A stretch of 64,000 nucleotides of DNA, taken from the NCBI GenBank assembly GCA_963715465.1, contig OY970246.1, forward strand, positions 829,969 through 893,968, written 5' to 3'. This stretch comes from an uncultured Flavobacteriaceae bacterium (GTDB lineage Bacteria > Bacteroidota > Bacteroidia > Flavobacteriales > Flavobacteriaceae). Shown in pieces: positions 18,193-58,698 of this stretch (the stretch's first letter is position 1; the number at the start of each line of letters is the position of its first letter). Both the position numbers and the translations under genes were made by a program. Below the pieces are notes generated by a model, which was given only the letters and a program-made list of their open reading frames with translations, was not told the DNA's origin and did no database searches.

Positions 18193-18301
18193 AATAAAAA
18201 TACGATTTATTATAAAAGTTGATATATCTTTTAGTGTAAAGCTTGTGTGTTTGAGTTATTAAATTAAAAAATTTCTTTTTTCAATCCTCAAAATCGAGTA
18301 C

Positions 18302-18326
18302 AAAAAAACCTCTCACAATAGAGAGG
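18302..18326 (-). terminator. Intrinsic terminator after the acyl-CoA dehydrogenase gene
   Basis: CCTCTC-loop-GAGAGG hairpin followed on the minus strand by a 7-T run. Confidence 0.65.
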
Positions 18327-18374
18327 CGTTTTTCTAATATTATAACGATATCAACCGCATAACTTTTAACGGGA

Positions 18375-19553
18375 TTATTTAAAGGCGTTCAATCCAGTGA
18401 TGTCTAAACCTGTGATCAATAAATGAATGTCGTGGGTGCCTTCGTAGGTGACGACGCTCTCCAGATTCATCATATGTCTCATAATACTATATTCGCCGCT
18501 TATACCCATACCGCCTAACATTTGTCTCGAGTCACGTGCGATGGTCAAGGCCATATCGACATTGTTACGTTTAGCCATTGATATTTGAGCAGAGGTAGCT
18601 GTACCGTTCTCGCGCATGACGCCCAATCTCCAGGCTAATAATTGTGCTTTCGTGATTTCGGTAATCATCTCGGCAAGTTTTTTTTGTTGTAATTGAAATT
18701 GACCAATAGGTTTTCCAAATTGCATACGCTGTTTGCTGTATCTCAAGGCTGTGTCATAACAGTCCATGGCTGCACCAATCGCTCCCCAGGCAATACCAAA
18801 ACGAGCAGAATCCAAGCAACCTAATGGCGCTCCTAACCCAGATTTATTTGGTAATAAATTCTCTTTAGGCACTTTAACATTGTCAAATATAAGCTCACCA
18901 GTAGCAGAGGCTCTCAATGACCATTTGTTATGGGTTTCGGGAGTTGAAAAGCCTTCCATATCGCGTTCTACAATGAGACCGTGAATACGTCCTTCTTCAC
19001 TTTTGGCCCAAACCACCGCGACGTTACAAAACGGAGAATTACTGATCCACATTTTTGCACCATTCAAAAGATAATGGTCACCCTTGTCCTTGAAATTGGT
19101 GGTCATGCCTCCCGGATTTGAACCATGATCGGGTTCGGTCAAACCAAAAGAACCCATCCATTCTCCAGAGGCTAATTTTGGAAGGTATTTTTTACGTTGT
19201 GCCTCGTTACCATATTTCCAAATAGGGTACATCACTAGAGATGATTGAACCGATGCTGTACTTCTTACGCCAGAGTCACCACGTTCAATTTCTTGCATAA
19301 TCAAACCATATGAAATTTGATCCAGTCCTGCGCCACCATATTCTTCTGGGATATATGGCCCAAAAGCGCCAATATCTGCCAATCCTTTTATGATTTGCTT
19401 CGGAAATTCTCCACGTTGTGCATAGTCTTCGATGATTGGAGAAACGTCACGCTTTACCCAATCTCGGGCTGCGTCACGCACTAATTTATGTTCTTCGGTA
19501 AGGAGCTCATCCAAATTATAATAATCTGGAGCTTCGAATAAATCTGGTTTCAT
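18375..19553 (-). CDS. Acyl-CoA dehydrogenase (glutaryl-CoA dehydrogenase-like)
   Basis: ACAD N/M/C domain pattern (FGLTEPDHGSNP, catalytic-base region YEGTHDIH). ATG at 19553 (MKPDLFEAPDYY) is preferred because a -7 box lies inside the longer track ORF. Confidence 0.85.
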   Translation of the reverse strand: MKPDLFEAPDYYNLDELLTEEHKLVRDAARDWVKRDVSPIIEDYAQRGEFPKQIIKGLADIGAFGPYIPEEYGGAGLDQISYGLIMQEIERGDSGVRSTASVQSSLVMYPIWKYGNEAQRKKYLPKLASGEWMGSFGLTEPDHGSNPGGMTTNFKDKGDHYLLNGAKMWISNSPFCNVAVVWAKSEEGRIHGLIVERDMEGFSTPETHNKWSLRASATGELIFDNVKVPKENLLPNKSGLGAPLGCLDSARFGIAWGAIGAAMDCYDTALRYSKQRMQFGKPIGQFQLQQKKLAEMITEITKAQLLAWRLGVMRENGTATSAQISMAKRNNVDMALTIARDSRQMLGGMGISGEYSIMRHMMNLESVVTYEGTHDIHLLITGLDITGLNAFK

Positions 19554-19630
19554 TATCTTAATTATTTTTAGTATTCCAAGATCAAAACGCTGCAAATTTT
19601 TAAAGATCGCTTCGGTTTTTCTTTGAATTA

Positions 19631-19638
19631 CAAAGATA
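19631..19638 (-). promoter_or_regulatory. Candidate -7 box (TATCTTTG on the minus strand) for the acyl-CoA dehydrogenase gene
   Basis: Exact TAnnTTTG match, about 78 nt upstream of the ATG at 19553. Confidence 0.35.
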
Positions 19639-19661
19639 ACGAAAACGTTTGCAGTGCGCAA

Positions 19662-20375
19662 TTACATCTTCAAATAAAAATCTTTGGTAAGTTCAATATA
19701 GTCGTCGGTATAGTGATGACGTGCTGTTTCAATGATTAATTCTGAAGATATGACCTCTGCGCTCACCAATGAAAATTCAATAAGACTTCTTTTAATTTCT
19801 GCGGAAGGATTACCTCTAACATGTGTAATTCGCTTGGGAAACAAACCAACTCTAAACGCTAATTTTGTAAATCGAACTTCTTCGGAAAACGGAATAACGA
19901 CCGAAAAAACCCCTTGCTCAGAAAGTAGATCAACCACAGATTCTAACAAATGCTTAAATGGCATAGCATCTTGAAATCGAGCGAGATCACGCTGGCTGTT
20001 GTCGGTTTTATAATCTTCGGAAAAGAATGGCGGATTACAAACAATCAAATCATAAGTATCATCAATCTCATTGACAAACTCTTCTAGCGAGGCATGATAG
20101 CAAAATAAGCGGTCGTTCCAACCCGATTGCTCAAAATTATCTACACATTGTTCGAAAGCCTGATCATCAATCTCAAGCGCTTCGATAATTTCTGCGTGAC
20201 ATCGTTGCGCCATCATGAGCGCCAAAATGCCGGTTCCTGCGCCAATATCCAATACCGAAAATGGATTCGTCTCAACCGACGTCCAAGCACCAAGCAAGAC
20301 CCCATCGGTCCCAATTTTCATGGCGCATTGGTCTTGGCCAACCGAAAATTGCTTGAATTCAAAATTCTTATTCAT
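19662..20375 (-). CDS. SAM-dependent N6-adenine methyltransferase, tRNA1(Val) m6A37 (YfiC/TrmN6)-like
   Basis: VLDIGAGTG SAM motif and a CNPPFF catalytic motif. Confidence 0.7.
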   Translation of the reverse strand: MNKNFEFKQFSVGQDQCAMKIGTDGVLLGAWTSVETNPFSVLDIGAGTGILALMMAQRCHAEIIEALEIDDQAFEQCVDNFEQSGWNDRLFCYHASLEEFVNEIDDTYDLIVCNPPFFSEDYKTDNSQRDLARFQDAMPFKHLLESVVDLLSEQGVFSVVIPFSEEVRFTKLAFRVGLFPKRITHVRGNPSAEIKRSLIEFSLVSAEVISSELIIETARHHYTDDYIELTKDFYLKM

Positions 20376-20418
20376 GAGATCTAAAAGTTCGTTCCATTGG
20401 TAAGTATTTAGGACGGGA

Positions 20419-20949
20419 TTATTCCTCTAAATATAAATCAATCAAACCTTCAGGTGTATCGACATGAATGACCTTATTTTTCTTGTCAACCTTCGAAATG
20501 AACTCGTCGTTCATTGGTATTAAAATTTCAATCCCATCCCTGTCAATTTCAAAAAGAGATTGCGCTGTAGAATCGTTGATGGCTTTGATGATGCCAACAA
20601 ATCCAAAGTTCTTGTCTTCGACTTTATAACCTATGATTTCATGAAAATAAAACTTGTCCTCGTCAAGTTTTGGTAAAAACTCAAGCGGTAAATAAAGTCC
20701 GCTTTTCATAAGAGCGTCGGCATCGGCTTCAGTATCGACATCTTCAAACTTAACCCGAAGTAATTCTGATTTGTGCAGTTGCGACGCTTCAATAAAGAAA
20801 GGCACCAAATTATTGCGTACCTCTATAAATACCGAATCCATGTGTTCATAAAGTTCTGGCTCATCGGTATCTAGTTTGACGAGCAATTCACCCTTGAAAC
20901 TGTATTTTTTTACGATTTTACCAAGAAAGAAGCAGTCTTTTTTATTCAT
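20419..20949 (-). CDS. rimM: 16S rRNA processing protein RimM
   Basis: RimM N-terminal and PRC-barrel pattern, 176 aa, located downstream of rpsP. Confidence 0.8.
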   Translation of the reverse strand: MNKKDCFFLGKIVKKYSFKGELLVKLDTDEPELYEHMDSVFIEVRNNLVPFFIEASQLHKSELLRVKFEDVDTEADADALMKSGLYLPLEFLPKLDEDKFYFHEIIGYKVEDKNFGFVGIIKAINDSTAQSLFEIDRDGIEILIPMNDEFISKVDKKNKVIHVDTPEGLIDLYLEE

Positions 20950-21629: not shown

Positions 21630-21677
21630 ATGTTTAATTAATTTGCGAGGTACGCGATCTCTATTATTAATGAGGCG

Positions 21678-31600: not shown

Positions 31601-31987
31601 TTTTTGATACTCGTAAAGCAGCCCCGTCAAAATATACACTCCAGTACTATCCTTGGTTGCGTTAAAACGTTCGCGCGCCCAATTATAGGCGTAACGGTCA
31701 AATAAAGGGGTATGAATGGTATCAGCACTAACCTTGGCCATAAAGAGCGTTTTGTAAATATCGCCCAAAATGTTGGCGTTGATATACGTCGTATCGGTCA
31801 ATACGCCATTATACGCTTCAACATCGGTAAATTCCATAGCATAGTCCAATAATATGCCCGATTGAACTCTGCTTTTGTCAAGATTTTGGAAAATTGGATT
31901 GATGTTGTTTTTCCATTGGTTATCGATGTGGATTTGGGTAAACGCTAATGCAGGTAACATTAGTAAGAGAACATGAAGTTTTTTCAT
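28697..31987 (-). CDS. Large secreted alpha/beta-hydrolase-like protein (GxSxG) with a T9SS C-terminal sorting domain
   Basis: Signal peptide, a nucleophile-elbow motif LLGQSMGGVIG mid-protein, and a C-terminal FKVYPNPAEDIVNI...GVYLLKIY...IIVK T9SS CTD. Confidence 0.65.
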   Translation of the reverse strand: MKKLHVLLLMLPALAFTQIHIDNQWKNNINPIFQNLDKSRVQSGILLDYAMEFTDVEAYNGVLTDTTYINANILGDIYKTLFMAKVSADTIHTPLFDRYAYNWARERFNATKDSTGVYILTGLLYEYQKLDGDAYRHILMPFGPSIFDPNPQDQNRITVSNSKYYDKFVNGVWQNPYLTQKTFALTPPILHSRSKDIYFKLPNELFLSNLGNQITNIQIDAGNGQGYKNLPFNTAIQIQFFENKIHDLTFKVTLNNNQTLYCRSKFKIDDPVLDQQQQQARGAIVVNDERVYIHEDSNFFSAAWLTIRRRQDSVSPFITRPLIIAEGLDTGNFTAPDDFGGETTLQNFIADINTEDEAGELSPLLLGNSQQYDLIYIDWVRGMADMRDNSKVLEEVIEWVNAQKVGNEPNVLLGQSMGGVIGRYTLARMENAQTNDPNAPDHDVRLFIAHDSPMQGANTPLAFQHFSAHMKEEYVSSPLIWATGEVLVPIGYGLAQIGSDLLNVFGANTSVPSFVTPSQLLSIQDQTAARQLNYWSAYSTLFGQHAQTRSENLAWQQTLSAEGWPTQSRNIAISNGNECGADNGFEPGAQLIDIDSRSNPGFLLDMMNAFLAPRIGVVTFDLGLVLTGAIPGRSRWQTNFDFNSYGTQGSENRIYRGRIRFEKKILWIGPTVYHDITNRSYYAPQDALPFDTFSGGRLNFFDEDGDFVFDDIPILPDLMDVINDFYGFVPVVSALDITKTNGNDPTPDDYLKSYSGGIPADTNLESGFDAFFVDNQPDQTFNNEHISFEERNGNWLAAELEANQPGNTFPVQDNCSFVCDSASFGSGLVSTCASQFTVTAPAGGDTYQWAISGASGYIEDNPPSPNVVIVKRNPGISGFVTIYVNITSAACGNAFFERQYYLGSKTVNSVNKINLNTIPHFSSGGQYCDIGLELNYSPSNSGILEIQWQKLTSSVQWILNVQDPTSRNVVIYPSNNQVFNFRVRTRTACGWSQWQNLSYNITSCGSARVGNPTTAFKVYPNPAEDIVNITLEDTDSKLSNYKNVTAELFDIVGRPKQNIQMNRNEGQFSVARLTPGVYLLKIYMDSSVEHHQIIVK

Positions 31988-32039
31988 AATTTTGAAATGG
32001 TTTAAGGATTAATACTTGTGTGAGTCTTTATTCTAATTT

Positions 32040-32066
32040 AAAGCCCAGTTGCCGCTGGGCTTTTTT
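32040..32066. terminator. Hairpin terminator (AGCCCAG-loop-CTGGGCT) within duplication unit 1
   Basis: GC-rich stem with a T run on the plus strand and an A run before it. It sits between two minus-strand genes, so the direction of function is uncertain. Confidence 0.45.
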
Positions 32067-32068
32067 AT

Positions 32069-32614
32069 TTACTGTGTAAAAAGACTGTCAAAGCGTCCTT
32101 CGGTTACAGTATATATTTTATCATTGATTGTATCTCGTATTTGAAAATTAAACGTGCCTGAAATAATGTTTTCTTCACTATCTATAAGAGATATGCTTAC
32201 CAAACCAGAGTTTGATGTATCCGTTGTATTATCATTTAAGAATAATGGAGGTGCGTTATCAAAAGTAACTTCGGCATAGAAACTATTTTCATCACGTGTC
32301 AATAGTTGATACGAGGCATTTGATTCAATTTCTAAGGAGTTAGTAGCTAATGAAATTAATTTAGGTGTTTTATTGTTAAAGTTTGCAGTTATATTAAAAA
32401 AATACTCTCCATCCACCAATTGGTAAAAGCAATTAAAAAAACCAGAGTTATCAACAAAAGGTTCACCATTAACGAGACAGCCAAAAGTGCCTGCACCTGT
32501 TTGCGTAGCTGGCGGCAGGCAGTCAATACCTTGGCAGTTGTCGTCGTCATCGTTACAGCCCCCTAGCCCCCAAAGGGGGAATATAAGCAGTGCTATGTAT
32601 ATCGTTTTTTTCAT
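32069..32614 (-). CDS. Small lipoprotein, paralog A (family unknown, possibly a lipocalin-like beta-sandwich)
   Basis: Lipobox GLGGCNDDDD. The N-terminal ~75 aa are nearly identical to paralog B. Shared C-terminal signature xSGTFxF...TEGRFDxxFTQ. Confidence 0.7.
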   Translation of the reverse strand: MKKTIYIALLIFPLWGLGGCNDDDDNCQGIDCLPPATQTGAGTFGCLVNGEPFVDNSGFFNCFYQLVDGEYFFNITANFNNKTPKLISLATNSLEIESNASYQLLTRDENSFYAEVTFDNAPPLFLNDNTTDTSNSGLVSISLIDSEENIISGTFNFQIRDTINDKIYTVTEGRFDSLFTQ

Positions 32615-32717
32615 GATTTGTTGATTTAGAGTTTATAGTCTATAAATTTAGGGTTTATTATTTACTTTATATTACGGTTTTTCCGTAGTTGATGTTATGA
32701 AATTGTTAAGTTGAGGT

Positions 32718-32894
32718 TTAATTTAAACTATTCGTAAACTCCATAGCATAGTCCAATAATATGCCCGATTGAACTCTGCTTTTGTCAAGATTTTGGAAAA
32801 TTGGATTGATGTTGTTTTTCCATTGGTTATCGATGTGGATTTGGGTAAATGCTAATGCTGGTAACATTAGTAAGAGAATACGAAGTTTTTTCAT
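32718..32894 (-). pseudogene. 5' remnant (58 codons) of the 1096-aa T9SS hydrolase gene, created by the duplication
   Basis: It translates to MKKLRILLLMLPALAFTQIHIDNQWKNNINPIFQNLDKSRVQSGILLDYAMEF, matching residues 1-53 of the full gene. It then diverges at the duplication junction and stops. Confidence 0.85.
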
Positions 32895-33600
32895 AATTTT
32901 GAAATGGTTTAAGGATTAATACTTGTGTGAGTCTTTATTCTAATTTAAAGCCCAGTTGCCGCTGGGCTTTATTAGTTATTGAGTAAATTGTGCATCGAAA
33001 CGTCCTTCCGTTATTTCATAAACTTTTCCATTATTTGGGTCAGTAACTGTAAATTCAAATATTGCAGAGACAATATTATTTTCAAAATCTAATAAAGTAA
33101 ATTTTATAAGCCCTAAACTTTCTTCTGTTGTAGTAGCGCCCATGCAATTAGAACAGTTGAAAGAGACTCTACCATAAAAATTACCATCTTGCTGTGATTT
33201 TAAAAATAAATTAATGTTTGTCTCTATATTTTTTTTTTCTGAACCAATTCCTATTTGGTCTATAACACTATCCTGACGGCCTCTTATACCAAAATAATAC
33301 TCTCCATCTACCAGTTGATAAAAGCAATTAAAAGAACCGCTGTTGTCCACAAAGGGTTTACCATTAACTAAACAGCCAAAAGTACCTTCACCAGTTTGCG
33401 TAGCTGGCGGCAGGCAGTCAATACCTTGGCAGTGATCGTCGTCCTCGTTACAGCCGCCTAGTCCCCAAAGGGGGAATAGAAGAAGTAATATGATATACAT
33501 TGTATTTTTCATAATCTTTTGTTTGAGTTTATAGTCTATAAATTTAGAGATTATTATGCGTTATATGTTGAGGTTTTTTTTTGCAGTTGATTTGATCATT
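32740..33600. repeat. Tandem segmental duplication, unit 2 (upstream boundary approximate)
   Basis: See unit 1. The leader AGTTTATAGTCTATAAATTTAG is shared upstream of both lipoprotein genes. Confidence 0.85.
32976..33512 (-). CDS. Small lipoprotein, paralog B
   Basis: Lipobox GLGGCNEDDD. Conserved N-terminal CQGIDCLPPATQTG...FNCFYQLVDGEY; the central part has diverged from paralog A. Confidence 0.7.
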   Translation of the reverse strand: MKNTMYIILLLLFPLWGLGGCNEDDDHCQGIDCLPPATQTGEGTFGCLVNGKPFVDNSGSFNCFYQLVDGEYYFGIRGRQDSVIDQIGIGSEKKNIETNINLFLKSQQDGNFYGRVSFNCSNCMGATTTEESLGLIKFTLLDFENNIVSAIFEFTVTDPNNGKVYEITEGRFDAQFTQ

Positions 33601-35125: not shown

Positions 35126-36055
35126 ATGAACTTACAAGCAGAACTCAACAAGGCAGGAGGCTTTAAAAACCTCGAACTTCTTGCGAAGCAAGTGGTGGAG
35201 GGTTTTATTTCAGGTATGCATAAGAGTCCGTTTCACGGGTTCTCTGCAGAATTCGCCGAACATAAGATCTACAACCAAGGCGAAAGTACGCGCCATATTG
35301 ACTGGAAGTTATTTGCAAAGACCGATAAGCTGTATACCAAACGCTATGATGATGAAACAAACTTGCGTTGTCATCTTATCATCGATAATAGTAGCTCGAT
35401 GCATTTTCCCGAATTAAAGGAGTTTAGTATTTCGAAATTGAACAAGATTGGCTTTTCGGCTTTGGCATCGGCATCCTTGATGCATATTTTAAAAAAGCAG
35501 CGCGATGCAGTTGGACTCAGTATCTACAGTGAGGATTATGATTATTACGCGCCAGAAAAAGGAAGCGAGCGGCACCACCAAATGCTGTTGAGTCAATTGG
35601 CACAAACGGTAATCACCAAGCAAATAAACAAGCAAACCGAAACCTATAGGTATCTGCACCAAATTGCCGAAAAAATTCATAGACGATCGTTAATTTTCTT
35701 TTTTACAGATATGTTTCAAACATCAGATGGGAGTGATAAATTATTTGAGGCATTGCGCCATTTGAAGCATAATAAGCACGAAGTGGTTTTATTTCATGTG
35801 ATGGATAAAGCCAAAGAATTAAGGTTTGATTTTGACAATACACCAAAACGTTTTATAGATGTAGAGACCAATGAATTTATCAATCTATATCCCAATACGG
35901 TAAAGGAGAGTTATGAACGTGCTGTGGATGATTACTTTAAGAGTATTAGATTAAAATGCCTACAATATCAAATCAAATACGTTGAGGCCGATATCAATAA
36001 ACCCTTTGATACAATACTCACAACCTACATGGTAGAGCGTCAGAAATTTATTTAA
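35126..36055 (+). CDS. DUF58 domain protein (vWA-like, the family usually found in MoxR/Bat clusters)
   Basis: SPFHGFSAEFAEHKIYNQGESTRHIDWK is the characteristic DUF58 motif region. Confidence 0.75.
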   Translation: MNLQAELNKAGGFKNLELLAKQVVEGFISGMHKSPFHGFSAEFAEHKIYNQGESTRHIDWKLFAKTDKLYTKRYDDETNLRCHLIIDNSSSMHFPELKEFSISKLNKIGFSALASASLMHILKKQRDAVGLSIYSEDYDYYAPEKGSERHHQMLLSQLAQTVITKQINKQTETYRYLHQIAEKIHRRSLIFFFTDMFQTSDGSDKLFEALRHLKHNKHEVVLFHVMDKAKELRFDFDNTPKRFIDVETNEFINLYPNTVKESYERAVDDYFKSIRLKCLQYQIKYVEADINKPFDTILTTYMVERQKFI

Positions 36056-36082
36056 ATTTTGTCAAAAAAGGTGTTTAAATAT

Positions 36083-36112
36083 TTGCAGTATTAAAAAACG
36101 AATGTATATTTG
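36083..36112 (+). promoter_or_regulatory. Candidate sigma-A promoter for tRNA-Asp (TTG-N19-TATATTTG)
   Basis: TTG at 36083-36085 and TATATTTG at 36105-36112, with the 19-nt spacing of the Bacteroidota consensus. Located 37 nt upstream of the tRNA. Confidence 0.45.
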
Positions 36113-36148: not shown

Positions 36149-36222
36149 GGTCTGGTAGTTCAGTTGGTTAGAATGTCGCCCTGTCACGGCGAAGGTCGCG
36201 GGTTCGAGTCCCGTCCAGACCG
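36149..36222 (+). tRNA. tRNA-Asp (anticodon GTC)
   Basis: 74-nt cloverleaf folded by hand: acceptor GGTCTGG/CCAGACC, anticodon stem TCGCC/GGCGA, loop CTGTCAC and T-loop TTCGAGT. CCA is not encoded. Confidence 0.9.
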
Positions 36223-36268
36223 CTACTATTGCAAAATTAAAGCTCTAAGAAATTAGGGTTTTTTTTTT

Positions 36269-36420
36269 AGCAATAGATTCCCGGTTTTATGGGAGTAAGG
36301 TGTTGTGTTGTTCCGAGTAAGATCGGAATGTAGTTGTAAGACACTCAATGTTGTTGAGTGCTTACCAATGAGAAGCTTTCCTTTTTTCTGAATAAGAAGA
36401 TTGGGATGCTTTTTTGTTTT
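36269..36420 (+). repeat. 152-bp direct repeat, copy 1 (left boundary of the EPS island)
   Basis: Differs from 42097-42248 at only 3 positions, all within the first ~32 nt; the last ~120 nt are identical. It contains the hairpin CACTCAA-TGTTG-TTGAGTG and a 3' terminator-like stem followed by TTTTTTGTTTT. Confidence 0.95.
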
Positions 36421-36915
36421 ATCGCCTCTTGGTCTTATCCAGGTGTGTCTCAAGATTTATTTTTTAAGCTTTTATAATCAGTTAATCAACGGTTGGAAGA
36501 CATGCGCATATCGTAACTTAATAGAAATAAAGAGATTCAAAAAGCTTCTAAAAACAACAATGAGAATTTCGGTTTAAGACTGTGGTAACCAAAACGTAGT
36601 GACGAATAGAAATTGATTTCGAAATGATTAAAAGAAGTAAGGTATAGCAATCACCATAAATCTCTATGGCCTTTGATATAGACGAACGATTATTTTATAT
36701 TTTAACTAACAATGACAACATTAAACGTCATCTCAACGATTTGATTTGTGCTTTGGCTAGAATGTTTTGAAATTTGACACCTTTTAAAACTAATATCCTA
36801 TATTTCAAATTAGTACATTTAATCACTACTGAAATGTTTTCTTTTTTTATGACCTAGCAATAATAACTATTAGCTCATAAATAATTGATGTTCTAATCTT
36901 TAAAAATTGTGTCAA

Positions 36916-38265
36916 ATGAAATATAGATTCATTCTCCCTATTCTATATGATCTATTGTTATTTATGTTTTTTGGTCTTATTTTAATGTTGTTTCCTTGGG
37001 GAGGAATTAATGGTATTTATAATTCAGATGGAGTGGTGCATATAAATAGCGAAGGTGATGCTTTGCAGTTATATCGAAATGGAAAACCGTTTTATATTAA
37101 AGGGGCTTCGGGAGATTCTTATTTTGGAGAATTGTCAAATATGGGTGCCAATACAATTCGCGTCTATGACACTTTAAATTTGGCATCGGTATTGGATAAT
37201 GCAGACAAAAATGGTTTGGCTGTGATTGTTGATATCCCTCTGCCGGAATATGATGAAAAATATTCGGAATATGATGATGATACTAAAAATGAAGCGCGTA
37301 AGACTAAGATTAAAAGTTTAGTTAGAACATTTAAGAATTATCCCGCATTACTTATTTGGAATTTAGGCAATGAAGTGCGCTATCCCATCACGTTGATACC
37401 AAATAAATTCATCAAAACCTACAATGATTTGATTGATATTATTCATGAAGAAGACCCTAATCATTTGGTTGGTACAACTGTTCAAAGAAGAATGGATATC
37501 ATGGCTATTTCAAGACATTCTTCAAAATTAGATATCATAGGATATAATATTTTTGGAACTATTGGAAATCTAAAATCAAATATAGAATCATTGAACTCTA
37601 TTTTAGAGAAGCCGTTTCCCTACTATATTAGCGAATGGGGTATTGATGGCTATTGGGAAACTGAGCAAACAACATGGGGAGCGAGTATAGAGCCAACAAG
37701 CACAAAGAAGATTGAACAACTTAGGTATAGATACAATAATTTTATTCGTAATGCAGGTGATGATTGTCAAGGATCATTAATCTTTTATTGGGGGCAAAAG
37801 CATGAGTGTACCAACACTTGGTTTAATGCTTATGGTCAACTCGGTGAGAAGTCTATAATGATTTCTATGCTTGAGATGTTATGGGCAAATAAAGAAGGGA
37901 ATAGCAGTAAGATAGGTCTTGATTATATGTTATTAGATGAAAGGGGAGCTCAAAATAGCATTGTTCTAAATCCAAATAGTTTAATAAAAGCTGAATTGAA
38001 ATTAAAAGAAACCTATGACGATAGTCTTAAAATTAGATGGGAATTGTATCACGATCACTGTAGTTTAGAAAGTATAAGTGATGACATTGGAAACCCAAAA
38101 AAGGTAGAAAATTTATTAACGCCTGAACACGGATTAAGTACAATGCTTAAAACTCCGCTTAAAGAAGGTCCTTATAGAATTTATGCATATCTAGAGAACA
38201 AAGATGGTCTCGTAGGTACATGCAATACGCCTTTTTATGTCTTAGATTCAAAGAATGAGCAATAA
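36916..38265 (+). CDS. Membrane-anchored clan GH-A-like glycoside hydrolase (TIM barrel)
   Basis: N-terminal TM segment, acid/base-type motif LLIWNLGNEV and nucleophile-type motif YYISEWG. ATG at 36916 preferred. Confidence 0.55.
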   Translation: MKYRFILPILYDLLLFMFFGLILMLFPWGGINGIYNSDGVVHINSEGDALQLYRNGKPFYIKGASGDSYFGELSNMGANTIRVYDTLNLASVLDNADKNGLAVIVDIPLPEYDEKYSEYDDDTKNEARKTKIKSLVRTFKNYPALLIWNLGNEVRYPITLIPNKFIKTYNDLIDIIHEEDPNHLVGTTVQRRMDIMAISRHSSKLDIIGYNIFGTIGNLKSNIESLNSILEKPFPYYISEWGIDGYWETEQTTWGASIEPTSTKKIEQLRYRYNNFIRNAGDDCQGSLIFYWGQKHECTNTWFNAYGQLGEKSIMISMLEMLWANKEGNSSKIGLDYMLLDERGAQNSIVLNPNSLIKAELKLKETYDDSLKIRWELYHDHCSLESISDDIGNPKKVENLLTPEHGLSTMLKTPLKEGPYRIYAYLENKDGLVGTCNTPFYVLDSKNEQ

Positions 38266-41200
38266 ACCAACTATTAGCGAACCTACAAAAATAGAATTGT
38301 TGACGATACATCTAATGATTTTAGTTGGGTGTTTTTCTATAGTCAATTTCTTGTATTGGTTTTTACAGCCTGAATATAGATTATATCCGCTTCTATATTG
38401 GCTGTTATGCTTGACATTATTTTATGGCATTTTAAGAACACTGTACATATGGTATTATTATTGGAATATATCGATTCCTAAAATTCAAAGTTCAGAAAAA
38501 ACATTCACTGTTGATATTTTGACTACCTTTTTTCCAGGTGAGCCTTATGAGATGATCCTAACAACGCTGCATGCAATTCAGAGAATATCTTATCCTCACA
38601 CTACATATTTATGTGACGAATCAAATGATCCTTATTTAAAACAAATCTGTAAAAGTATAGGTGTAATTCACGTGACGAGAGATAATCGAATCGGTGCAAA
38701 AGCTGGAAATATTAATAATGCCCTAAAGATAGCAAAAGGAGAAATATGTGTAGTTCTCGATCCAGATCATGTGCCCAGTCCAGATTTCTTAGACCCGATA
38801 ATGCCTTTTTTTAGCGATGCCGAAATTGGATTCGTACAGGTTGTTCAGTCTTATTATAATACAGATGATACTTTGGTAGCTCGAGGTGCGGCAGAGCAAA
38901 CGTATCAGTTTTATGGTCCTATGATGATGACTATGAATTCATATGGTACTGTTAATGCCATAGGAGCCAATTGTACATTTAGAAGAAAAGCATTGAATAG
39001 TATAGGTGGTCATGCTGCAGGTTTGGCAGAAGATATGCATACTGCCATGCTTTTGCATTCCAAAGGTTGGAAATCGGTTTATATCCCGAAGGTTTTAGCA
39101 AAAGGACTTGTCCCTTCTAGCTTAACAGCTTTTTTTAAACAACAACTAAAATGGGCGAGAGGTACATTTGATCTTCTTTTCTTTGTCTACCCTAAGCTTT
39201 TTACAAGGTTCACACTAAGACAAAAGATTCATTACGGACTTCTTCCTCTTCATTATTTTATTGGAGTGCTCTATCTTGTCAATTTCTTGATTCCGATTTT
39301 ATCTCTTTTTCTTTATAAAATGCCGTGGAGTGGCAATATTCTCTATTTTGGATTTATCATAATGCCCATAATTATGAGCAATTTTCTTTTAAGAGTTTAT
39401 ATTCAAAAATGGGTTATTGAGAAAAAGGAACGAGGATTTCACGTTATTGGAGGATTATTACAAATTACATCTTGGTGGTACTATTTTTTAGGATTTGTTT
39501 ACACCATTTTAAGAAAGAAAATACCATATATACCAACACCTAAGCAAGGGGAGAACAGCTCCAACTATAAAATAATAATACCAAACTTAGTGATTGCTGT
39601 TCTATCAATTGCCGCAATAATTTATGGACTCCATAAAAACTTAACTCCGTTCTCTATTATAATGTCTGGATTTGCAGCATTGAATGCAGGTTTTATGATA
39701 TTTAGCATATACTTAAGTAATCAAGAAACCAATAGAAATCAGATTCTTAGGGAAAAGCTACACCAAACTACCGTAACCTTTTTTGTGTCTCTAAAAGGAT
39801 ATTACCGTCAATTATCCAATTATTTATTTCATCTCATAAGACCCATCGCACTAAGTTTGCTTCTCATCATATTAAGTCTATCTATTTTTGCTCAAGTAGA
39901 TTATACTAAAAGTCAGTGGGAAGATGTGAGTGAAAGCGTTATAGAAAGAACACCATTGCGATATTTAGGTATTTTTTACCCTGCTGAAGATAATGGCCTA
40001 TCTAATTTAAAGCAAATTGCTAAATTGGAAAACAAAGAGAATATTAAGTTTGATATTGTATCTCTCTATGTTGCTTGGGGAGACAAAGAGCATATCGCCA
40101 TAAATGATGAGCTAATTTCTGGAATTTATAAAAAAAATGCTATTCCGTTGATAAGTTGGGAGCCTTGGGCTTCTGATTTTTCGATGAACGACAGTCTTCC
40201 AGAATCAAATAAGGAAGATTATATACTTAAGCACATAGCCCATGGTAAGTATGACAATTATATTAAAAGCTACGCAAGGTATTTAAAATCATATGAAAAA
40301 CCAGTTTTCCTTCGTTTTGCTCATGAATTTGATAATCCATTTTATCCTTGGTCAGAAACGGGACTAAATAGCCCGTTGCACTTTAAAGAAGCTTGGGTAC
40401 ATATATATAAAATGTTTAAAGACTGCGGTGCTGGTAATGTGTTCTGGATATGGAATCCATGGAAGGTAGAAAATATGAATAACTATTTTCCAGGGGATGC
40501 TTATGTTGACTGGGTTGGCATTACAGGATTAAATTATGGTCTGGTTAATGAAGAGAATCAGTTGTATTCTTTTGAGAGTCTTTACAGTCCGTTTCATGAT
40601 GCATTAAAAACAGTAACAGACAAACCTGTAATGATTGCAGAGTTTGGATCATTAAATGCAGATGGTCATCAAGAAGAGTGGATAGAGAAAGGGCTTAGGT
40701 CAATTGATCAAAAATTTAAGGACGTAAATGCCGTTGTCCTGTTTAATAGCAATCTGGATAATAACATACCCAATACGCTTAAGGAGACTTCCAATAAACT
40801 AAATTGGACACTCAATTCTTATAGACCATTCCGCTTAAATTTTGCTCACGATTTGCCAGAGTATGTTTTTAATACATCGCTTAAACAAAAAGGAGCAAAG
40901 ATTGATGATACGAGGAAGCAAAATAATAATGTGATTACGCAAATAGAGAAACCTATCACAGCAGTCGCTTATAAAAAAGGACATAACTGGATGTCCAATA
41001 ATTATGTATTAAGTAGAGATGTTCTTGTTGAGGATTTTGGTCTAATGAAGGATATAGGTGTTAGTACCATAAAGTACGAGGGTATTAGTATTTACGATAC
41101 GAATGTAGTCAATATTTCTCGCGAGATGGACATGTCCCTAATTTTTAGCTTCTGGATACCTGAGACCATCAACTTTGCAGAAGATGATGACATGAAACGT

Positions 41201-42079
41201 AGTTTAAGTAATGAGATTCTCGAAAAGGTTAAAGGTTTACTTGGTGAAACGCATATTAGATCATGGTATATAGATAACGACCTACAAGAATACCAAGATA
41301 AAGTATATCATGAACCAGTCTTGACTTTTCAAAAAATGGCTTATTTGAAATGGCTAAGACAATTAATTATAGATATAAAGAAAATCGATTCAATCCGGCC
41401 AGTTATCGCTAATGTAGAGCTTGATTTCGAAACCTTAGATAAAATCGATTATATGCGAGCGCTGGGAGTTAGCCCAGATATATACGGCTTTACTGTAACT
41501 GATAGCGATTTCTTAGAGACTTTTAATAATGACCCGAGAAGTGCGGCCATACAATATATCTTACAGGATGTTGATGCTAATTCATTTTTAGAGTTTAAAC
41601 GCAGTTATAGAAAGGCATCAGTAATACTCGAGAACTGGCAAGATCAATGGGAAAATAATAGTGTTAGTTTTGATGGGTTGATTGATTTTAAAGGTAGAAA
41701 GAAAGCTAGCTACAATGAAATGCTTCAAGATATTTCTAGTACTATCACGTCTAAAAAAGAGAGTTCAATTAGAATATTGGTTCCGTCAATTTTATTATAC
41801 CCTAAAGACGAAGTAACTTATAGTGCGGTAAGCTTACAAGACGGTAAGTGGATTTATCCAGATCCTGATACTAATGATGATTTATTTGAGTGGATTTTAA
41901 TAAAAAAAGACCGTTATAATAATAGATTAGCTATTAAGGATCTAGGCACTGGTGTAGTTAAGAAAATTACGATTCCTAGCGATTACAGCAAATTTGAACT
42001 TATGCTAGTTTATAATAATATAAACGAGAGTACTGTTTATACCGATATAACAGATTTAAATACAAAAATAAACGATTAA
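38255..42079 (+). CDS. Processive GT2 beta-glycan synthase (BcsA/CelA-like) fused to GH26-like and degenerate GH-A-like domains
   Basis: GT2 motifs VVLDPDHVP, GANCTFRRKAL, AEDMHTAMLLHSKGWKSVY and QQLKWARG, with multiple TM segments. The GH26-like block has FLRFAHEFDNPFYPW, YFPGDAYVDWVGITGLNYG and VMIAEFGS. The C-terminal domain is paralogous to the upstream GH but reads IDNDL where NLGNEV is expected. No PilZ motif seen. Confidence 0.7.
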   Translation: MSNKPTISEPTKIELLTIHLMILVGCFSIVNFLYWFLQPEYRLYPLLYWLLCLTLFYGILRTLYIWYYYWNISIPKIQSSEKTFTVDILTTFFPGEPYEMILTTLHAIQRISYPHTTYLCDESNDPYLKQICKSIGVIHVTRDNRIGAKAGNINNALKIAKGEICVVLDPDHVPSPDFLDPIMPFFSDAEIGFVQVVQSYYNTDDTLVARGAAEQTYQFYGPMMMTMNSYGTVNAIGANCTFRRKALNSIGGHAAGLAEDMHTAMLLHSKGWKSVYIPKVLAKGLVPSSLTAFFKQQLKWARGTFDLLFFVYPKLFTRFTLRQKIHYGLLPLHYFIGVLYLVNFLIPILSLFLYKMPWSGNILYFGFIIMPIIMSNFLLRVYIQKWVIEKKERGFHVIGGLLQITSWWYYFLGFVYTILRKKIPYIPTPKQGENSSNYKIIIPNLVIAVLSIAAIIYGLHKNLTPFSIIMSGFAALNAGFMIFSIYLSNQETNRNQILREKLHQTTVTFFVSLKGYYRQLSNYLFHLIRPIALSLLLIILSLSIFAQVDYTKSQWEDVSESVIERTPLRYLGIFYPAEDNGLSNLKQIAKLENKENIKFDIVSLYVAWGDKEHIAINDELISGIYKKNAIPLISWEPWASDFSMNDSLPESNKEDYILKHIAHGKYDNYIKSYARYLKSYEKPVFLRFAHEFDNPFYPWSETGLNSPLHFKEAWVHIYKMFKDCGAGNVFWIWNPWKVENMNNYFPGDAYVDWVGITGLNYGLVNEENQLYSFESLYSPFHDALKTVTDKPVMIAEFGSLNADGHQEEWIEKGLRSIDQKFKDVNAVVLFNSNLDNNIPNTLKETSNKLNWTLNSYRPFRLNFAHDLPEYVFNTSLKQKGAKIDDTRKQNNNVITQIEKPITAVAYKKGHNWMSNNYVLSRDVLVEDFGLMKDIGVSTIKYEGISIYDTNVVNISREMDMSLIFSFWIPETINFAEDDDMKRSLSNEILEKVKGLLGETHIRSWYIDNDLQEYQDKVYHEPVLTFQKMAYLKWLRQLIIDIKKIDSIRPVIANVELDFETLDKIDYMRALGVSPDIYGFTVTDSDFLETFNNDPRSAAIQYILQDVDANSFLEFKRSYRKASVILENWQDQWENNSVSFDGLIDFKGRKKASYNEMLQDISSTITSKKESSIRILVPSILLYPKDEVTYSAVSLQDGKWIYPDPDTNDDLFEWILIKKDRYNNRLAIKDLGTGVVKKITIPSDYSKFELMLVYNNINESTVYTDITDLNTKIND

Positions 42080-42096
42080 AAAAATAAAGTATTTTC

Positions 42097-42248
42097 AGCA
42101 AGAGATTCCCGTTTTTATGGTAGTAAGGTGTTGTGTTGTTCCGAGTAAGATCGGAATGTAGTTGTAAGACACTCAATGTTGTTGAGTGCTTACCAATGAG
42201 AAGCTTTCCTTTTTTCTGAATAAGAAGATTGGGATGCTTTTTTGTTTT
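42097..42248 (+). repeat. 152-bp direct repeat, copy 2 (right boundary of the EPS island)
   Basis: See copy 1. It starts 17 nt after the synthase stop codon. Confidence 0.95.
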
Positions 42249-42446
42249 GTACTAAGACCATGAAGCATTAGACTTTTTAAGGTGTTTTGCTTTTAAAAAA
42301 CTCAAAATTATACTTTAAGTTGTTCACAGCTTTCGAAAACGTCCTCCAAAACCACGCATGTATAGACATCATATCTAGATTTTTTATCTTTTGCTTATTT
42401 AGGCAATAGAAGGACAGGCTATTTTAATATTTAACAACTATAAAAT

Positions 42447-42469
42447 TAGTTTAAACTAAACTTTTAGTT
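42447..42469. promoter_or_regulatory. Overlapping palindromes upstream of blaI-like gene 1, a candidate operator
   Basis: TAGTTTAAACTA (a perfect 12-bp palindrome, 42447-42458) overlaps AACTAAA-CT-TTTAGTT (42454-42469). They lie about 35-55 nt upstream of the ATG at 42503. Confidence 0.4.
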
Positions 42470-42502
42470 ATATTTGCGTATTGAAAATTGAAAATACAGC
42501 TC

Positions 42503-42862
42503 ATGAAACAACTCACCAAAGCCGAAGAAGAAATTATGCACATCTTATGGCAACTCGAAAAAGCCAATGTAGCCGCCATAATTGAAAAGCTCCCTGAGCC
42601 AAAACCTGCCTATAATACGGTATCCACAATTGTTAGAATACTAGAAAATAAAGGTTTTGTAGATTATGAAAAGCAAGGTAAAGGTCACATTTACTTTGCG
42701 CTGGTGAAAAAACAGGAGTATAGTAATCAATCCATAAATAATCTCGTTGACAACTATTTTCATGGCTCATTTAAAAGTATGGTGTCGTTTTTTGTGAAGA
42801 AAAATGACGTCGATTTAAAAGATATGGAGGCCATATTAAAGGATATCAATAACACTAAATAA
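42503..42862 (+). CDS. BlaI/MecI/CopY-family transcriptional repressor
   Basis: Winged-helix N-terminus (LTKAEEEIMHILW...YNTVSTIVRILENKGFV), ~120 aa, immediately upstream of an M56 gene. Confidence 0.85.
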   Translation: MKQLTKAEEEIMHILWQLEKANVAAIIEKLPEPKPAYNTVSTIVRILENKGFVDYEKQGKGHIYFALVKKQEYSNQSINNLVDNYFHGSFKSMVSFFVKKNDVDLKDMEAILKDINNTK

Positions 42863-42867
42863 ACGCT

Positions 42868-44733
42868 ATGTTACATTATGTTTTGCAGGTTATTGCGTTT
42901 CAGATCGTTTTTTTAATGGTCTACGATTTTTTTCTTCGGAAGGAGACGTTCTTTAATTTAAATCGCATTTATTTGTTAGCTACTGCGGTGCTTTCCGTCG
43001 TGATTCCTTTTATAAAGATCGACCAGATCAAAACGGTGGTTTCAAAAGATTTTGTGATTACATTGCCAGAGGTCATTCTTGGTGCGCCGTCTAACATAGC
43101 AAGCACTATCGATCCACAAATTGCCATGGAAGCTGGCATCAACCTAGCGCCTCAACCCATACCTTTTTGGACCATTATTTTCATTTCTGGCATCTGCTTG
43201 GCAGCTCTAGTGTTTATTATAAAAATGTCAAAATTACTGCTGCTCAGTTCTAAATTTCCTAAACAACAGCATGGAAAGGTCACGATCATTCATATTCATA
43301 ATAGTACCAAGGCATTCTCATTTTTCAATATCGTTTTTTTAGGAGATAGTTTAAATGAGAACGATCAAGGTTCCATTTTACAGCATGAATTAGTGCACGT
43401 ACAACAGCACCACTCGTTTGATCTTCTGCTTTTTGAACTCTTCAAAATTGTGTTCTGGTTCAATCCGTTGGTATATATCTATCAAAGCCGAATCGCGACC
43501 TTACATGAATATATCGCAGATTCTAAATCCATAAAACAGCAACCTAAAACCGATTACTACAATAAGTTATTGGCTCAAGTTTTCGAGACTCAAAAATTCT
43601 CATTCATCAATCCTTTTTTCAAACAATCACTAATCAAAAAACGAATCGTTATGTTAAGCAAATCAAGATCAAAGCACATTCAACTCACCAAATACGCACT
43701 TCTATTTCCTATCATATTGGCCATGTTACTTTACACCTCATCCTACGCTCAGGATACTATAGTGGAGACTTCGGAAACTTTAACGCAGGACTATCAAGCG
43801 TTATCAGATGATGAATTGAAGCAAAAGCTGCGTGAAGAGCTTACGCAAATGCAGCGGGACAGAACATCTTTCGACAAGCTATATCAACTTGCCAGTCACA
43901 TCAATGATACCTATCTGCTTTCTCGCGTCGATTATTACCGATTGGAAATCTTTCTAGAAGACATGTCACAATCTAAGATTGATAGAGGATCAACCGAAGG
44001 AAAAGCTTCAAAAGGTGATGTCGAACAAGATGACCGCTTGGTTTCCCGAAATTTTAAAAACTATAAAGAGTATGTAACGTATAAAAATACAGCCGAAGCA
44101 AAAGCAAAATGGGAAAATAAGGATACAGATGGTGTTCTTAAATTATTTGTTGAGGACATTAGCACGATGACTTCCGAAGAAAAAGTTAGAAAAGAGAATA
44201 AACTTAATAAGTTAAAAACAGATCCATTTTATGATAAGCTCATAATTTCAGAATTATATGACCAAAACATTTTTTACTCTGAAACACCCAAGACCGTCAC
44301 AGAAATTGAAATCATCAAAGAAACCAAAATAATCGATTCTTCTTCACAGGTACCATTTAATATTGTAGATGAGGTACCAATTTTTAAAGGCTGTGAGGAT
44401 TTTGAAACCAATAAACAGCGTAAAGAATGCATGAGTACTAATATATCAAAGCATGTCGTTGAAAATTTTGATACTAAAATGGCAAAAGCACTTGGATTGA
44501 CTGGGAGGCAACGCATTAACGTCACTTTCAAAATTGATAAAGAAGGTCATGTCATTGAGGTAAAATCAAGAGCGCCTCATCCTGCTTTAGAAGAAGAAGC
44601 CAAACGTGTGATCAATACGTTACCACCATTTATTGCTGGAAAACAAAAGGGTATAAATGTGATTGTGCCTTACAGCTTGCCAATTATATTTCAAGTCAAT
44701 AGTGACCACGACCATCCTGAAAAGAAAAATTAA
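42868..44733 (+). CDS. BlaR1-like M56 metallopeptidase sensor fused to a C-terminal TonB-C-like domain
   Basis: N-terminal TM segments, HELVHVQQHH zinc motif, and a C-terminal VDEVPIFKGC...C...INVTFKIDKEGHV...VPYSLPIIF region of TonB-C type. Confidence 0.8.
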   Translation: MLHYVLQVIAFQIVFLMVYDFFLRKETFFNLNRIYLLATAVLSVVIPFIKIDQIKTVVSKDFVITLPEVILGAPSNIASTIDPQIAMEAGINLAPQPIPFWTIIFISGICLAALVFIIKMSKLLLLSSKFPKQQHGKVTIIHIHNSTKAFSFFNIVFLGDSLNENDQGSILQHELVHVQQHHSFDLLLFELFKIVFWFNPLVYIYQSRIATLHEYIADSKSIKQQPKTDYYNKLLAQVFETQKFSFINPFFKQSLIKKRIVMLSKSRSKHIQLTKYALLFPIILAMLLYTSSYAQDTIVETSETLTQDYQALSDDELKQKLREELTQMQRDRTSFDKLYQLASHINDTYLLSRVDYYRLEIFLEDMSQSKIDRGSTEGKASKGDVEQDDRLVSRNFKNYKEYVTYKNTAEAKAKWENKDTDGVLKLFVEDISTMTSEEKVRKENKLNKLKTDPFYDKLIISELYDQNIFYSETPKTVTEIEIIKETKIIDSSSQVPFNIVDEVPIFKGCEDFETNKQRKECMSTNISKHVVENFDTKMAKALGLTGRQRINVTFKIDKEGHVIEVKSRAPHPALEEEAKRVINTLPPFIAGKQKGINVIVPYSLPIIFQVNSDHDHPEKKN

Positions 44734-57999: not shown

Positions 58000-58269
58000 A
58001 TGAACCTAGAAATCACTCAAGCCAATAACTTTTTTAAAGTCAAGGGCGCTTTACATAGACGTAATGTCCATGTATTTACTAAAGAATTTCAACACGTTTT
58101 TGAACGTGCCAATGCCATTACGGTGAGTATTGAGAATTTGATCAGTATTGATCGCCATGGTATTAAAGCTATTGCACAACTAAATGATGAGGCGCTGTCA
58201 AAAAATAAGCGCCTATCCATTATTGGGAGTGGTCCGAGTAGTTTATACCATCACTTCAAGACGGTATAG
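58000..58269 (+). CDS. Small STAS-like protein, tandem paralog 1
   Basis: 89 aa. FFKVKGAL...ITVSIENLISIDRHGIKAI...LSIIGSG fits a minimal STAS layout. About 40-45% identical to the next ORF by eye. Confidence 0.5.
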   Translation: MNLEITQANNFFKVKGALHRRNVHVFTKEFQHVFERANAITVSIENLISIDRHGIKAIAQLNDEALSKNKRLSIIGSGPSSLYHHFKTV

Positions 58270-58407: not shown

Positions 58408-58698
58408 ATGGCAATAGACGTAGAACGTTCAAATCATTATTTTAAAGTCAAGGGCGCTTTAGATAAGCACAGCATCACTGAATTTAAGCGGTATCTAAAT
58501 GGTGTTTTCGAAACTTCAACCCCAATAACAATTTGTATTGAAGATGTGGTTTCCATAGATCAACATGGCGTCAATGCATTGACTGAGCTTTATAGAGAAT
58601 CTATTGAAAAACAGAAGACAATATCTATTGTGGGATCGGGTTGTAAAGAGCTGTATCAACATTTTAGAACGCAGAACATACAAGCACTCGTTTCGTAA
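58408..58698 (+). CDS. Small STAS-like protein, tandem paralog 2
   Basis: 96 aa. YFKVKGAL...ITICIEDVVSIDQHGVNAL...ISIVGSG. Confidence 0.5.
   Translation: MAIDVERSNHYFKVKGALDKHSITEFKRYLNGVFETSTPITICIEDVVSIDQHGVNALTELYRESIEKQKTISIVGSGCKELYQHFRTQNIQALVS

Follow-up and report, generated by a model that had tools for sequence, protein, structure and literature searches.

Two genes stand downstream of tRNA-Asp in the genome of an uncultured Flavobacteriaceae bacterium, and a nearly identical sequence lies on either side of them. What is this repeated sequence, and how did its second copy come to lie at the far end of the genes? A sequence-only reading of the 64,000 nucleotides analysed here (the window) took the repeats for the boundaries of an acquired exopolysaccharide (EPS) island. 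They are not boundaries of the usual kind: a conserved, structured RNA element that ends in a terminator and belongs natively to the locus is present twice, here called E (left copy) and E' (right copy). The reading favoured here, with a probability of roughly 0.7, is that a duplicated trailer RNA of tRNA-Asp brackets glucan cargo at an insertion hot spot. The island itself is of an ordinary kind. What is new is the RNA element, and that duplicates of it repeatedly mark the boundaries of cargo.

The conserved element behind tRNA-Asp

A repeat search found one direct repeat family in the region, 157 nt long, at 36264–36420 and 42092–42248, with 97% identity and a spacing of 5828 nt. Within the 152-nt limits of the sequence-only reading, the copies differ at three positions near the 5' end, as that reading had said, all in the first ~30 nt. 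The 3' 127 nt are identical (36294–36420 and 42122–42248). A 56-nt core of the repeat has two exact occurrences in the window and none in 100 shuffles. A whole-window repeat scan and a covariance-model search found no third copy in the 64 kb. In three draft assemblies of the same species, contigs are broken exactly at the repeat. The last base of the contig with the left-flanking DUF58 gene is the end of the left copy, the contig with the right-flanking blaI has its first base within the right copy, and the cassette stands alone on a contig of 5955 nt (5828 + 127). Two collapsed repeat copies are independently shown by these breaks and by the length of the cassette contig.

The repeat unit is a discrete conserved RNA element of ~125–155 nt, located on the tRNA strand directly after tRNA-Asp. 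Its 5' part is (A/G)GCAAU followed by a spacer of variable sequence; in the window, an additional hairpin, P0, is found in this spacer. After the spacer come the invariant single-stranded GUUGUGUUG, the hairpin P1, a YGUAGU linker, the hairpin P2, CCRAUG and the long hairpin P3. P3 reads G(R)AAGCUUUCC-UUUUUCU...AGAAAAUYGGGAUGC and is followed by UUUUUUGUUUU. In the left copy of the window, these parts correspond to about 36275–36297 (P0, optional), 36302–36310 (GUUGUGUUG), 36310–36329 (P1), 36336–36365 (P2) and 36370–36414 (the terminator hairpin P3, then the U-run). P3 and UUUUUUGUUUU are seen in all E copies on the modelled strand, in the form of an intrinsic terminator. The predicted fold of E has –53.2 kcal/mol (z = –5.8), and that of E' –49.1 kcal/mol. 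The three differences between E and E' all fall in P0, and one of them weakens P0 of E'.

The hairpins are supported by covariation. A covariance model (CM R1) built from 35 sequences recovers 79 copies at E < 1e-6, including both window copies. In the alignment of these 79 sequences, 96.6% of the cells are paired, against 80.5% in shuffles and 43–63% with slid partners. Double changes are seen in 324 cells, against 83 in shuffles, and in 16 of the 26 pairs. The covariation score is 0.453 versus 0.167, and 0 of 500 shuffles reach the observed value. All six P1 pairs show 5–6 pair types each. This alignment was fitted to the covariance model, which favours structure; the same stems were already present in the MAFFT-only alignment. 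RNAalifold on the raw 61-sequence MAFFT alignment was discarded: it returned only P3 and a fragment of P2, as indels had misaligned P1 and P2. The 35-sequence subset and realignment to the model solved this. The alignments indicate that E carries two sequence-variable, pairing-conserved hairpins, P1 and P2. G-U pairs are frequent, including an invariant U-G and G-U in P3, and fit the plus strand only. Because of these pairs and the U-run, the structure is read from the plus strand, that is, as RNA. A long-range GUUG/CAAU helix closing P1 and P2 is possible; both of its sides are invariant. If E pairs with a target or binds a protein, GUUGUGUUG, whose complement is CAACACAAC, is the obvious place for it.

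In Rfam 15 no family matches E, even at E ≤ 10; only tRNA matches were returned. Phage and plasmid collections contain no E match. An exact 24-mer of the repeat has no match in genome or viral contig collections, from which the representative of the species is evidently absent, exact matching being too strict across species. Nothing like E is seen in the published catalogue of small RNAs (sRNAs) of Flavobacterium psychrophilum (PMC9723704), and its Rfp11, Rfp13, Rfp15 and Rfp18 show no kinship with E. E can be considered a well-supported candidate RNA family that lies outside Rfam and is apparently undescribed.

Relatives were sampled with the upstream DUF58 protein as the anchor, which gave 80 loci of 20 kb from 80 species, including Psychroserpens, Algibacter, Winogradskyella, Mariniflexile, Lacinutrix, Bizionia and Gelidibacter. 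Below, labels from L009 to L179 are names of fetched relative loci or metagenome contigs. tRNA-Asp comes straight after DUF58 in 78 of the 80 loci, and 66 of these 78 have an E homologue after it, with a median gap of 45 nt (range 2–90). All 83 E matches in the related loci are on the tRNA strand (+). No match lies upstream of the tRNA in 773 kb, and 13 extra copies lie downstream in 661 kb. A position-unbiased scan of metagenome contigs for the core motif of E yielded 120 loci. Here 49 copies follow an intact tRNA-Asp and 25 are at contig ends. About 24 full-length copies have no intact tRNA ahead, and 19 of them are preceded by a partial tRNA-Asp 3' end, which reads ..GUCCCGUCCAGACCGC.., and a hairpin. 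Altogether, an intact or partial tRNA-Asp stands ahead of 68 of the roughly 73 full-length copies that are informative.

The Bacteroidetes promoter consensus is TTTG/TAnnTTTG. A perfect promoter of this type (TTTG, 19 nt, TATATTTG) is present ahead of tRNA-Asp only. The motif scan found no TAnnTTTG –7 motif between the tRNA and E or upstream of E', and so no promoter of their own. A hairpin with a T-run separates the tRNA from E in most species. It is missing in some, and E starts only 2–12 nt after the tRNA in L019, L036, L047, L049 and L094. E is probably transcribed together with tRNA-Asp as its 3' trailer, reached by read-through of the short first hairpin where that is present. The 3' processing of the tRNA would then release E as a stable small RNA, and P3 would be the definitive terminator of the tRNA-Asp operon. 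E' is probably an operon terminator and a 3' untranslated region (3'UTR) RNA. It would terminate the transcript of the cassette and supply a second, mRNA-borne dose of E as a 3'UTR product. Nor is there any TAnnTTTG –7 motif in the 495-nt AT-rich spacer between E and the first cassette gene, 36421–36915. Transcription of the cassette may rely on read-through from tRNA-Asp/E, or else be driven by an alternative sigma factor.

Around E, a small hairpin with a palindromic sequence of the type TCCCGATAGCTATCGGGA is found at shifting places: after the tRNA, before the hairpin, or inside the loop of P3. It is seen at 36275–36297 of the window and in L080, L037, L069, L179, L026, L018 and L050. This suggests a miniature dispersed repeat, and the optional P0 of the window may be one such hairpin.

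The cassette and other cargo of the locus

The features of the locus, all on the plus strand, are as follows.

35126–36055, +: DUF58 gene, conserved left flank and synteny anchor (Pfam; 78–89% identical across 80 species)
36082–36112, +: tRNA-Asp promoter of the canonical Bacteroidota type, TTTG, 19 nt, TATATTTG (regex scan)
36149–36223, +: tRNA-Asp (GTC) (ARAGORN; Rfam tRNA, 70.6 bits; position after DUF58 as in the relatives)
36242–36268, +: short hairpin and T-run just after the tRNA, the first terminator, probably leaky (read from the sequence)
36264–36420, +: E, copy 1, left repeat (repeat search; fold; CM R1, 97.2 bits; covariation)
36421–36915, +: AT-rich spacer before the hydrolase gene (blastn, same-species contigs only; motif scan)
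36916–38265, +: GH158-like glycoside hydrolase (GH), putative endo-beta-1,3-glucanase (PDB 6pal and 9oro matches; weak Pfam)
38255–42079, +: membrane glycosyltransferase family 2 (GT2) synthase, 1274 aa (Pfam; PDB 4p00 and 2bvd; motifs)
42092–42248, +: E', copy 2, right repeat (repeat search; CM R1, 98.8 bits)
42436–42476, +: palindrome before blaI, probable BlaI operator, overlapping the –7 box (inverted repeat; conservation)
42503–44733, +: blaI (42503–42862) and blaR1-like/TonB_C gene (42868–44733), conserved right flank (Pfam; synteny)

Gene calls and Pfam bear out that only a GH-A-like hydrolase gene and a giant GT2 gene lie between the repeats. They overlap and are both on the plus strand. 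Pfam detected no integrase, transposase or recombinase domain in these two open reading frames (ORFs), again as had been noted. The left repeat starts 41–46 nt downstream of tRNA-Asp, the neighbourhood pointed out before and one that is typical of genomic islands. E' starts 12 nt past the stop codon of GT2, within a short T-run, and no tRNA-derived sequence stands ahead of it, so that an att core derived from the tRNA is not seen in the window.

The hydrolase, with a gene call of 449 aa and a hydrophobic N-terminus, matches PDB 6pal (E = 5.5e-51) and the GH158 structure 9oro (E = 1.4e-44 over residues 47–441), with weak GH2_C/GH5 matches in Pfam. By sequence it is assigned to GH158 as a putative endo-beta-1,3-glucanase. 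GT2 has a BcsA-like catalytic region at aa 74–484 (PDB 4p00, 1e-37; Pfam GT2 families), with the motifs DPD169, AED258 and QQLKW296 (K in place of R) and about six hydrophobic segments. It shows the features of BcsA-type processive synthases: the fold, the D/DxD/(T/A)ED/Q(Q/R)xRW motifs and transmembrane segments. Neither a PilZ domain nor a BcsB partner was detected for GT2, which does not fit a cellulose synthase proper, and its score of 165 with the NCBIfam CelA domain is far under the cut-off of 699. A GH26 domain like the Clostridium lichenase Lic26A (PDB 2bvd, 4e-24) occupies aa 591–836, and about 440 aa at the C-terminus have no domain assignment. By analogy with BcsA/BcsZ, the cassette may pair a synthase with a glucanase that trims the product, which would be a beta-1,3 or mixed-linkage glucan.

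The GH-GT2 pair is missing from the DUF58/tRNA-Asp locus in all 80 related species and from all 120 metagenomic E loci. GT2 has a 99%-identical homologue in the same species, and the source name of this homologue makes the organism a Psychroserpens. The closest named homologue outside the species is 66% identical and belongs to another genus and context, and no other Psychroserpens is among the 120 best GT2 homologues. The pair is kept as a unit at 45–69% identity in many Flavobacteriaceae with varied surroundings: in Paucihalobacter ruber, in an EPS cluster of Costertonia, among housekeeping genes of Christiangramia, and beside a DDE transposase fragment on a metagenomic contig. E is never near the pair in these four contexts. 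Flanking repeats around the pair were sought in four other genomes, and only Paucihalobacter has one, an unrelated repeat of 25 nt. Since E-like repeats are lacking at the other GH-GT2 loci, the bracketing belongs to the tRNA-Asp/E locus and does not come with the cassette. In the P. ruber locus (L009), the direct repeat is at 8136–8160 and 14214–14238 with 24 of 25 nt identical (GTMGAGTCGGAGGGATTTTAGTTCC), and the locus contains no tRNA.

Relatives carry a TPR histidine kinase, a response regulator and DUF456 between E and blaI, in some cases with a TonB_C protein. The order in many genera is E, TPR histidine kinase, response regulator, DUF456, (TonB_C), blaI, blaR1 and TPR protein. The kinase-regulator-DUF456 block is conserved from Psychroserpens to Winogradskyella and was not found elsewhere in the 64 kb. 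Synteny with relatives resumes only at the palindrome 42436–42476. The comparison with relatives indicates that the event is a replacement of the resident block and not a simple insertion, and that the GH-GT2 pair is lineage-specific accessory cargo. The earlier idea of an acquired cassette therefore holds as far as accessory cargo absent at this locus in 80 species is concerned, but the cassette replaces resident genes. Likewise, the empty site that had been predicted (tRNA-Asp, one repeat copy, blaI) was not found and is not the ancestral state, since relatives carry the kinase-regulator-DUF456 block there.

The GC content of the cassette is 33.1%, versus 37.4% for the window. GH (0.332) and GT2 (0.337) have the two lowest values of 45 ORFs (mean 0.382, standard deviation (sd) 0.026), and their GC at third codon positions (GC3) is 0.267 and 0.285, versus 0.353 (sd 0.051). 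The low GC is real, but the contrast of 25–35% with 42–43% given in the sequence-only reading was overstated. A check of GC and codon usage, which that reading had proposed, shows slightly low GC and ordinary codon usage. As in genomic islands, the distribution is sporadic, with absence in 80 species, and the GC is the lowest of the window, although the deviation is below 2 sd.

Comparison of the related loci indicates a hot spot for insertions, shared across the family, in the DNA directly behind tRNA-Asp/E. The cargo includes secreted proteins with PKD/CHU_C or Por_Secre_tail domains in L037 and L069, AraC-TPR and MORN proteins in L059, a hybrid kinase in L035 and a xanthine-dehydrogenase-type operon in L053. 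In L037, L059, L069 and L023, unrelated cargo separates the E copies; L044, L053 and L055 have a displaced E. No integrase domain was found in the cargo ORFs scanned against Pfam. Extra E copies are nearly always at the far end of lineage-specific cargo. An array is present in L023 (Flavobacteriales bacterium 34_180_T64), where 11128–20727 contains five E copies within 10 kb, each after one gene. The four cargo genes followed by E copies are a small ORF, the gene of an FAD/BBE oxidase, another small ORF and the gene of a Laminin_G_3 protein of 1633 aa. L091 has tandem E copies about 260 nt apart with no cargo between them. Partial E copies consisting of the terminator half only also occur.

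Paired copies are 100% identical in L059 and about 92% identical in L069, and those of L037 differ by a compensatory C-G to U-A change. Copy 2 of L037 (15437–15556) has the same sequence as the only E of L028 (2394–2513), a locus from another Algibacter species, and the tRNA-proximal copy of L037 may be the imported one. Homology between E copies always stops at the end of the U-run. The left edge of the second copy varies. It includes the last 20 nt of tRNA-Asp in L037 and the tRNA tail or hairpin in L023 and L069, in L023 as diverged remnants of the tRNA tail plus hairpin. In L059 and the window, only a T-run precedes GCAAU.

The partial tRNA-Asp 3' ends before metagenomic E copies are, as their sequences indicate, attR-like scars of site-specific integration into the tRNA. 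Because of these scars, tRNA-Asp is taken as a real integration target in the family, with E as its displaced native neighbour. Small inserts without an integrase, having their own E beside a restored tRNA, are found in L037, L141, L143 and L156. ParB-like, RteC-like or IS110-type ORFs, read by eye from the sequences, adjoin some of the partial-tRNA/E scars. In L118, L122, L177 and L179, a conserved stretch of ~50 nt (..GCCACAGCGACAGGGCTCGCCAAGCAAGGTTCGAGTCCCGTCCAGACCGC) links such ORFs to the partial tRNA-Asp and E, and looks like the right end of a family of integrative and conjugative elements (ICEs) targeting tRNA-Asp. An IS110 transposase is near E in L122, but a bridge-RNA reading of E was dropped, as about 70 species have E without IS110 nearby.

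Some other observations concern the surroundings. The palindrome 42436–42476 (AACTATAAAATTAGTTTAAACTAAACTTTTAGTT) overlaps the TATATTTG –7 box, which is at 42469. It is the only conserved part of the spacer 42249–42502, in about 20 related loci, and palindromes of the same type are also seen upstream of the TonB_C gene in some Psychroserpens. It is probably the BlaI operator. Elsewhere in the window, 31827–33578 is a tandem duplication with a unit of ~900 nt (300 nt at 91%, 209 nt at 87% and 57 nt at 81%), which gave two paralogous small minus-strand ORFs at 32069–32614 and 32976–33512, with a faint DUF6252 match in a sister assembly. An S16-Flavobacteria ribosomal protein leader is at 21637–21671 (minus strand), with 37.3 bits against the Rfam gathering score of 35.7, and 52–59 bits in six related loci. 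At 58024–58078 and 58432–58486 is a direct repeat of 55 nt with 75% identity, its copies 408 nt apart.

Possible origins of the second copy

How the duplication arose can be proposed only conditionally. The cassette would have been linked to the chromosome by one of two routes, either of which leaves a second E at its 3' end. The first is Campbell-type homologous integration, at E, of a circle carrying E and GH-GT2; the circle could have been donated by a conspecific or have arisen when E recombined with E in an earlier excision. The second is a join by poly-T microhomology between the 3' end of the cargo and the T-run preceding E. The near-identity of E and E' would be kept by recency or gene conversion. 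If RecA recombined E with E', the cassette would be lost or freed as a circle; that the repeats could delete the cassette had been suggested before, and nearly identical repeats of 157 nt are indeed a plausible substrate for RecA.

Several points weigh against the duplicated-trailer reading. Most secondary copies elsewhere are marked by a partial tRNA, which is absent at the window E', and the mechanism in the window may not be the commonest one. Neither an empty site nor a junction of a circle was found; the pattern of tRNA terminator, one E and blaI-side flank has no match in the metagenome contigs, where the species may be absent. The acquisition of the cassette is deduced by comparison with other species, whose DUF58 is at most 89% identical. 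GC and GC3 of its genes are only about 1.3–1.9 sd low, and the codon-usage distance is unremarkable. The copy numbers of E in the related species refer to 20-kb loci. P3 went unflagged in a simple terminator scan; its stem has a bulge and exceeds the length of the scan's model. Finally, the existence, ends and processing of the E RNA are predicted from sequence.

The alternative that survives best, although it is unlikely, is a classical tRNA-targeting element: an island integrated at tRNA-Asp by a tyrosine integrase that was later lost, with the repeats as attL and attR. The window does resemble genomic islands, ICEs and cis-mobilizable elements (CIMEs) at tRNA 3' ends in its position beside a tRNA, its lineage-specific cargo, its direct repeats and its lack of an integrase. 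tRNA-Asp is a real site-specific target, as seen from the 19 metagenomic E copies and L037 with a partial tRNA-Asp 3' end ahead. Other loci of the family have genuine partial-tRNA attR scars and ICE ends, with ICE-type ORFs (ParB-like and RteC-like, by eye) flanking some of these E copies, and integrase-less cargo flanked in this way resembles cis-mobilizable elements moved in trans. In the window, however, the repeat is the whole conserved 157-nt RNA element, far longer than a core att site and without any tRNA sequence, and the insertion is downstream of E, not in the tRNA. Because E' starts in the T-run 12 nt after the GT2 stop codon, with no tRNA remnant, a simple att-in-tRNA event does not describe the window. 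The cassette has no integrase, and later trimming of the partial tRNA and hairpin must be invoked, whereas L059 and L131 independently show the same boundary, a T-run before GCAAT.

It is quite improbable that the sRNA gene was duplicated locally with no relation to the cassette, the GH-GT2 pair being vertically inherited and lost or unsampled in relatives. Cargo-free tandem copies such as those of L091, the commonness of sRNA paralogy and the ordinary codon usage of the cassette would fit this view. The near-constant association of extra copies with the end of lineage-specific cargo is against it, as are the abutment of E' on the GT2 stop codon, the replacement of a block conserved from Psychroserpens to Winogradskyella, and the lack of other Psychroserpens among the 120 best GT2 homologues.

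A bolder idea makes tRNA-Asp/E a dedicated platform for cassette capture, with E itself as the recombination module. Circles bearing E would be moved by a trans-acting recombinase recognising folded E, or through RNA. Such a platform would resemble an integron, with an RNA gene linked to a tRNA as its basis. The idea is given little credence here.

E might also be a dispersed intergenic repeat, of the type of repetitive extragenic palindromes (REPs) or miniature inverted-repeat transposable elements (MITEs), or a shared terminator module, with the bracketing incidental. The five copies of L023, each following a gene, the terminator-half copies and the separate palindromic hairpin that behaves as a dispersed repeat around E are in line with this. 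The counts given above make it highly improbable: over 78 genomes no copy lies upstream of tRNA-Asp in 773 kb, none is on the minus strand, the window has only two, 68 of about 73 metagenomic copies are linked to tRNA-Asp, and the phage and plasmid collections have none. Among the findings that together would have overturned the sequence-only reading was a common multi-copy repeat unrelated to the boundaries. Half of this holds: the family is recurrent, but its extra copies are tied to cargo boundaries and not dispersed.

Least credible of all is that E copies are attC-like folded recombination sites delimiting cassettes beside tRNA-Asp. E resembles attC sites, and clusters of attC sites lacking integron integrases (CALINs), in being a structured, sequence-variable, pairing-conserved repeat after cargo units of one or two genes without mobility genes, with arrays in L023, but no integron integrase or other recombinase is conserved at the locus, no R''/R' (GTTRRRY) boxes were seen by eye (no dedicated attC model was run), the strand-specific RNA-type pairing with G-U pairs and the U-run point to an RNA terminator, the left boundaries of secondary copies vary among tRNA 3' end, hairpin and T-run, and most genomes have a single E and no cassette.

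Related systems and meaning for the family

The duplicated-trailer reading has counterparts in known RNAs. 3'ETS-leuZ of the Escherichia coli glyW-cysT-leuZ operon is a tRNA 3' external transcribed spacer RNA. Like it, E would be a stable structured RNA directly 3' of a tRNA, without its own promoter and ending at the intrinsic terminator of the operon. Release by tRNA processing is likewise predicted. E differs in having no sequence relation to 3'ETS-leuZ, in its greater length and in its two covarying hairpins plus the invariant GUUGUGUUG. In many species an extra hairpin and T-run lie between the tRNA and E, and a sponge or regulatory role of E is putative. CpxQ, SroC and DapZ are 3'UTR-derived small RNAs sharing the terminator of their mRNA. 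E' is similar to this class in that it lies 12 nt after the GT2 stop, has no promoter, supplies the terminator and would arise solely as the 3' end of an mRNA. It is dissimilar in that this 3'UTR is a duplicate of an RNA gene normally found behind a tRNA.

For the cassette, the closest comparison is with BcsA/BcsZ of cellulose, a synthase and its cognate glucanase, and with BgsA and CrdS, GT2 synthases of mixed-linkage or beta-1,3-glucan. It shares with them a membrane GT2 of processive type, here beside an endo-glucanase of matching class (GH158). It departs from them in that PilZ and BcsB were not detected and that a GH26 domain of lichenase type and ~440 further residues are joined to the synthase.

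To our knowledge, regulatory RNAs are poorly known in Bacteroidota. The presence of E behind tRNA-Asp in dozens of genera of marine Flavobacteriaceae offers a concrete target for study. The locus is also a reusable marker of genome plasticity, receiving secreted proteins of the type IX secretion system, regulators, redox operons, ICEs and a beta-glucan module. Duplicated E copies would provide a simple route for loss, amplification or transfer of cargo without an element-encoded recombinase. Marine flavobacteria are usually studied as degraders of beta-1,3 and mixed-linkage glucans. The GH158 glucanase and the GH26-fused synthase predict that such a glucan is made by a marine flavobacterium.

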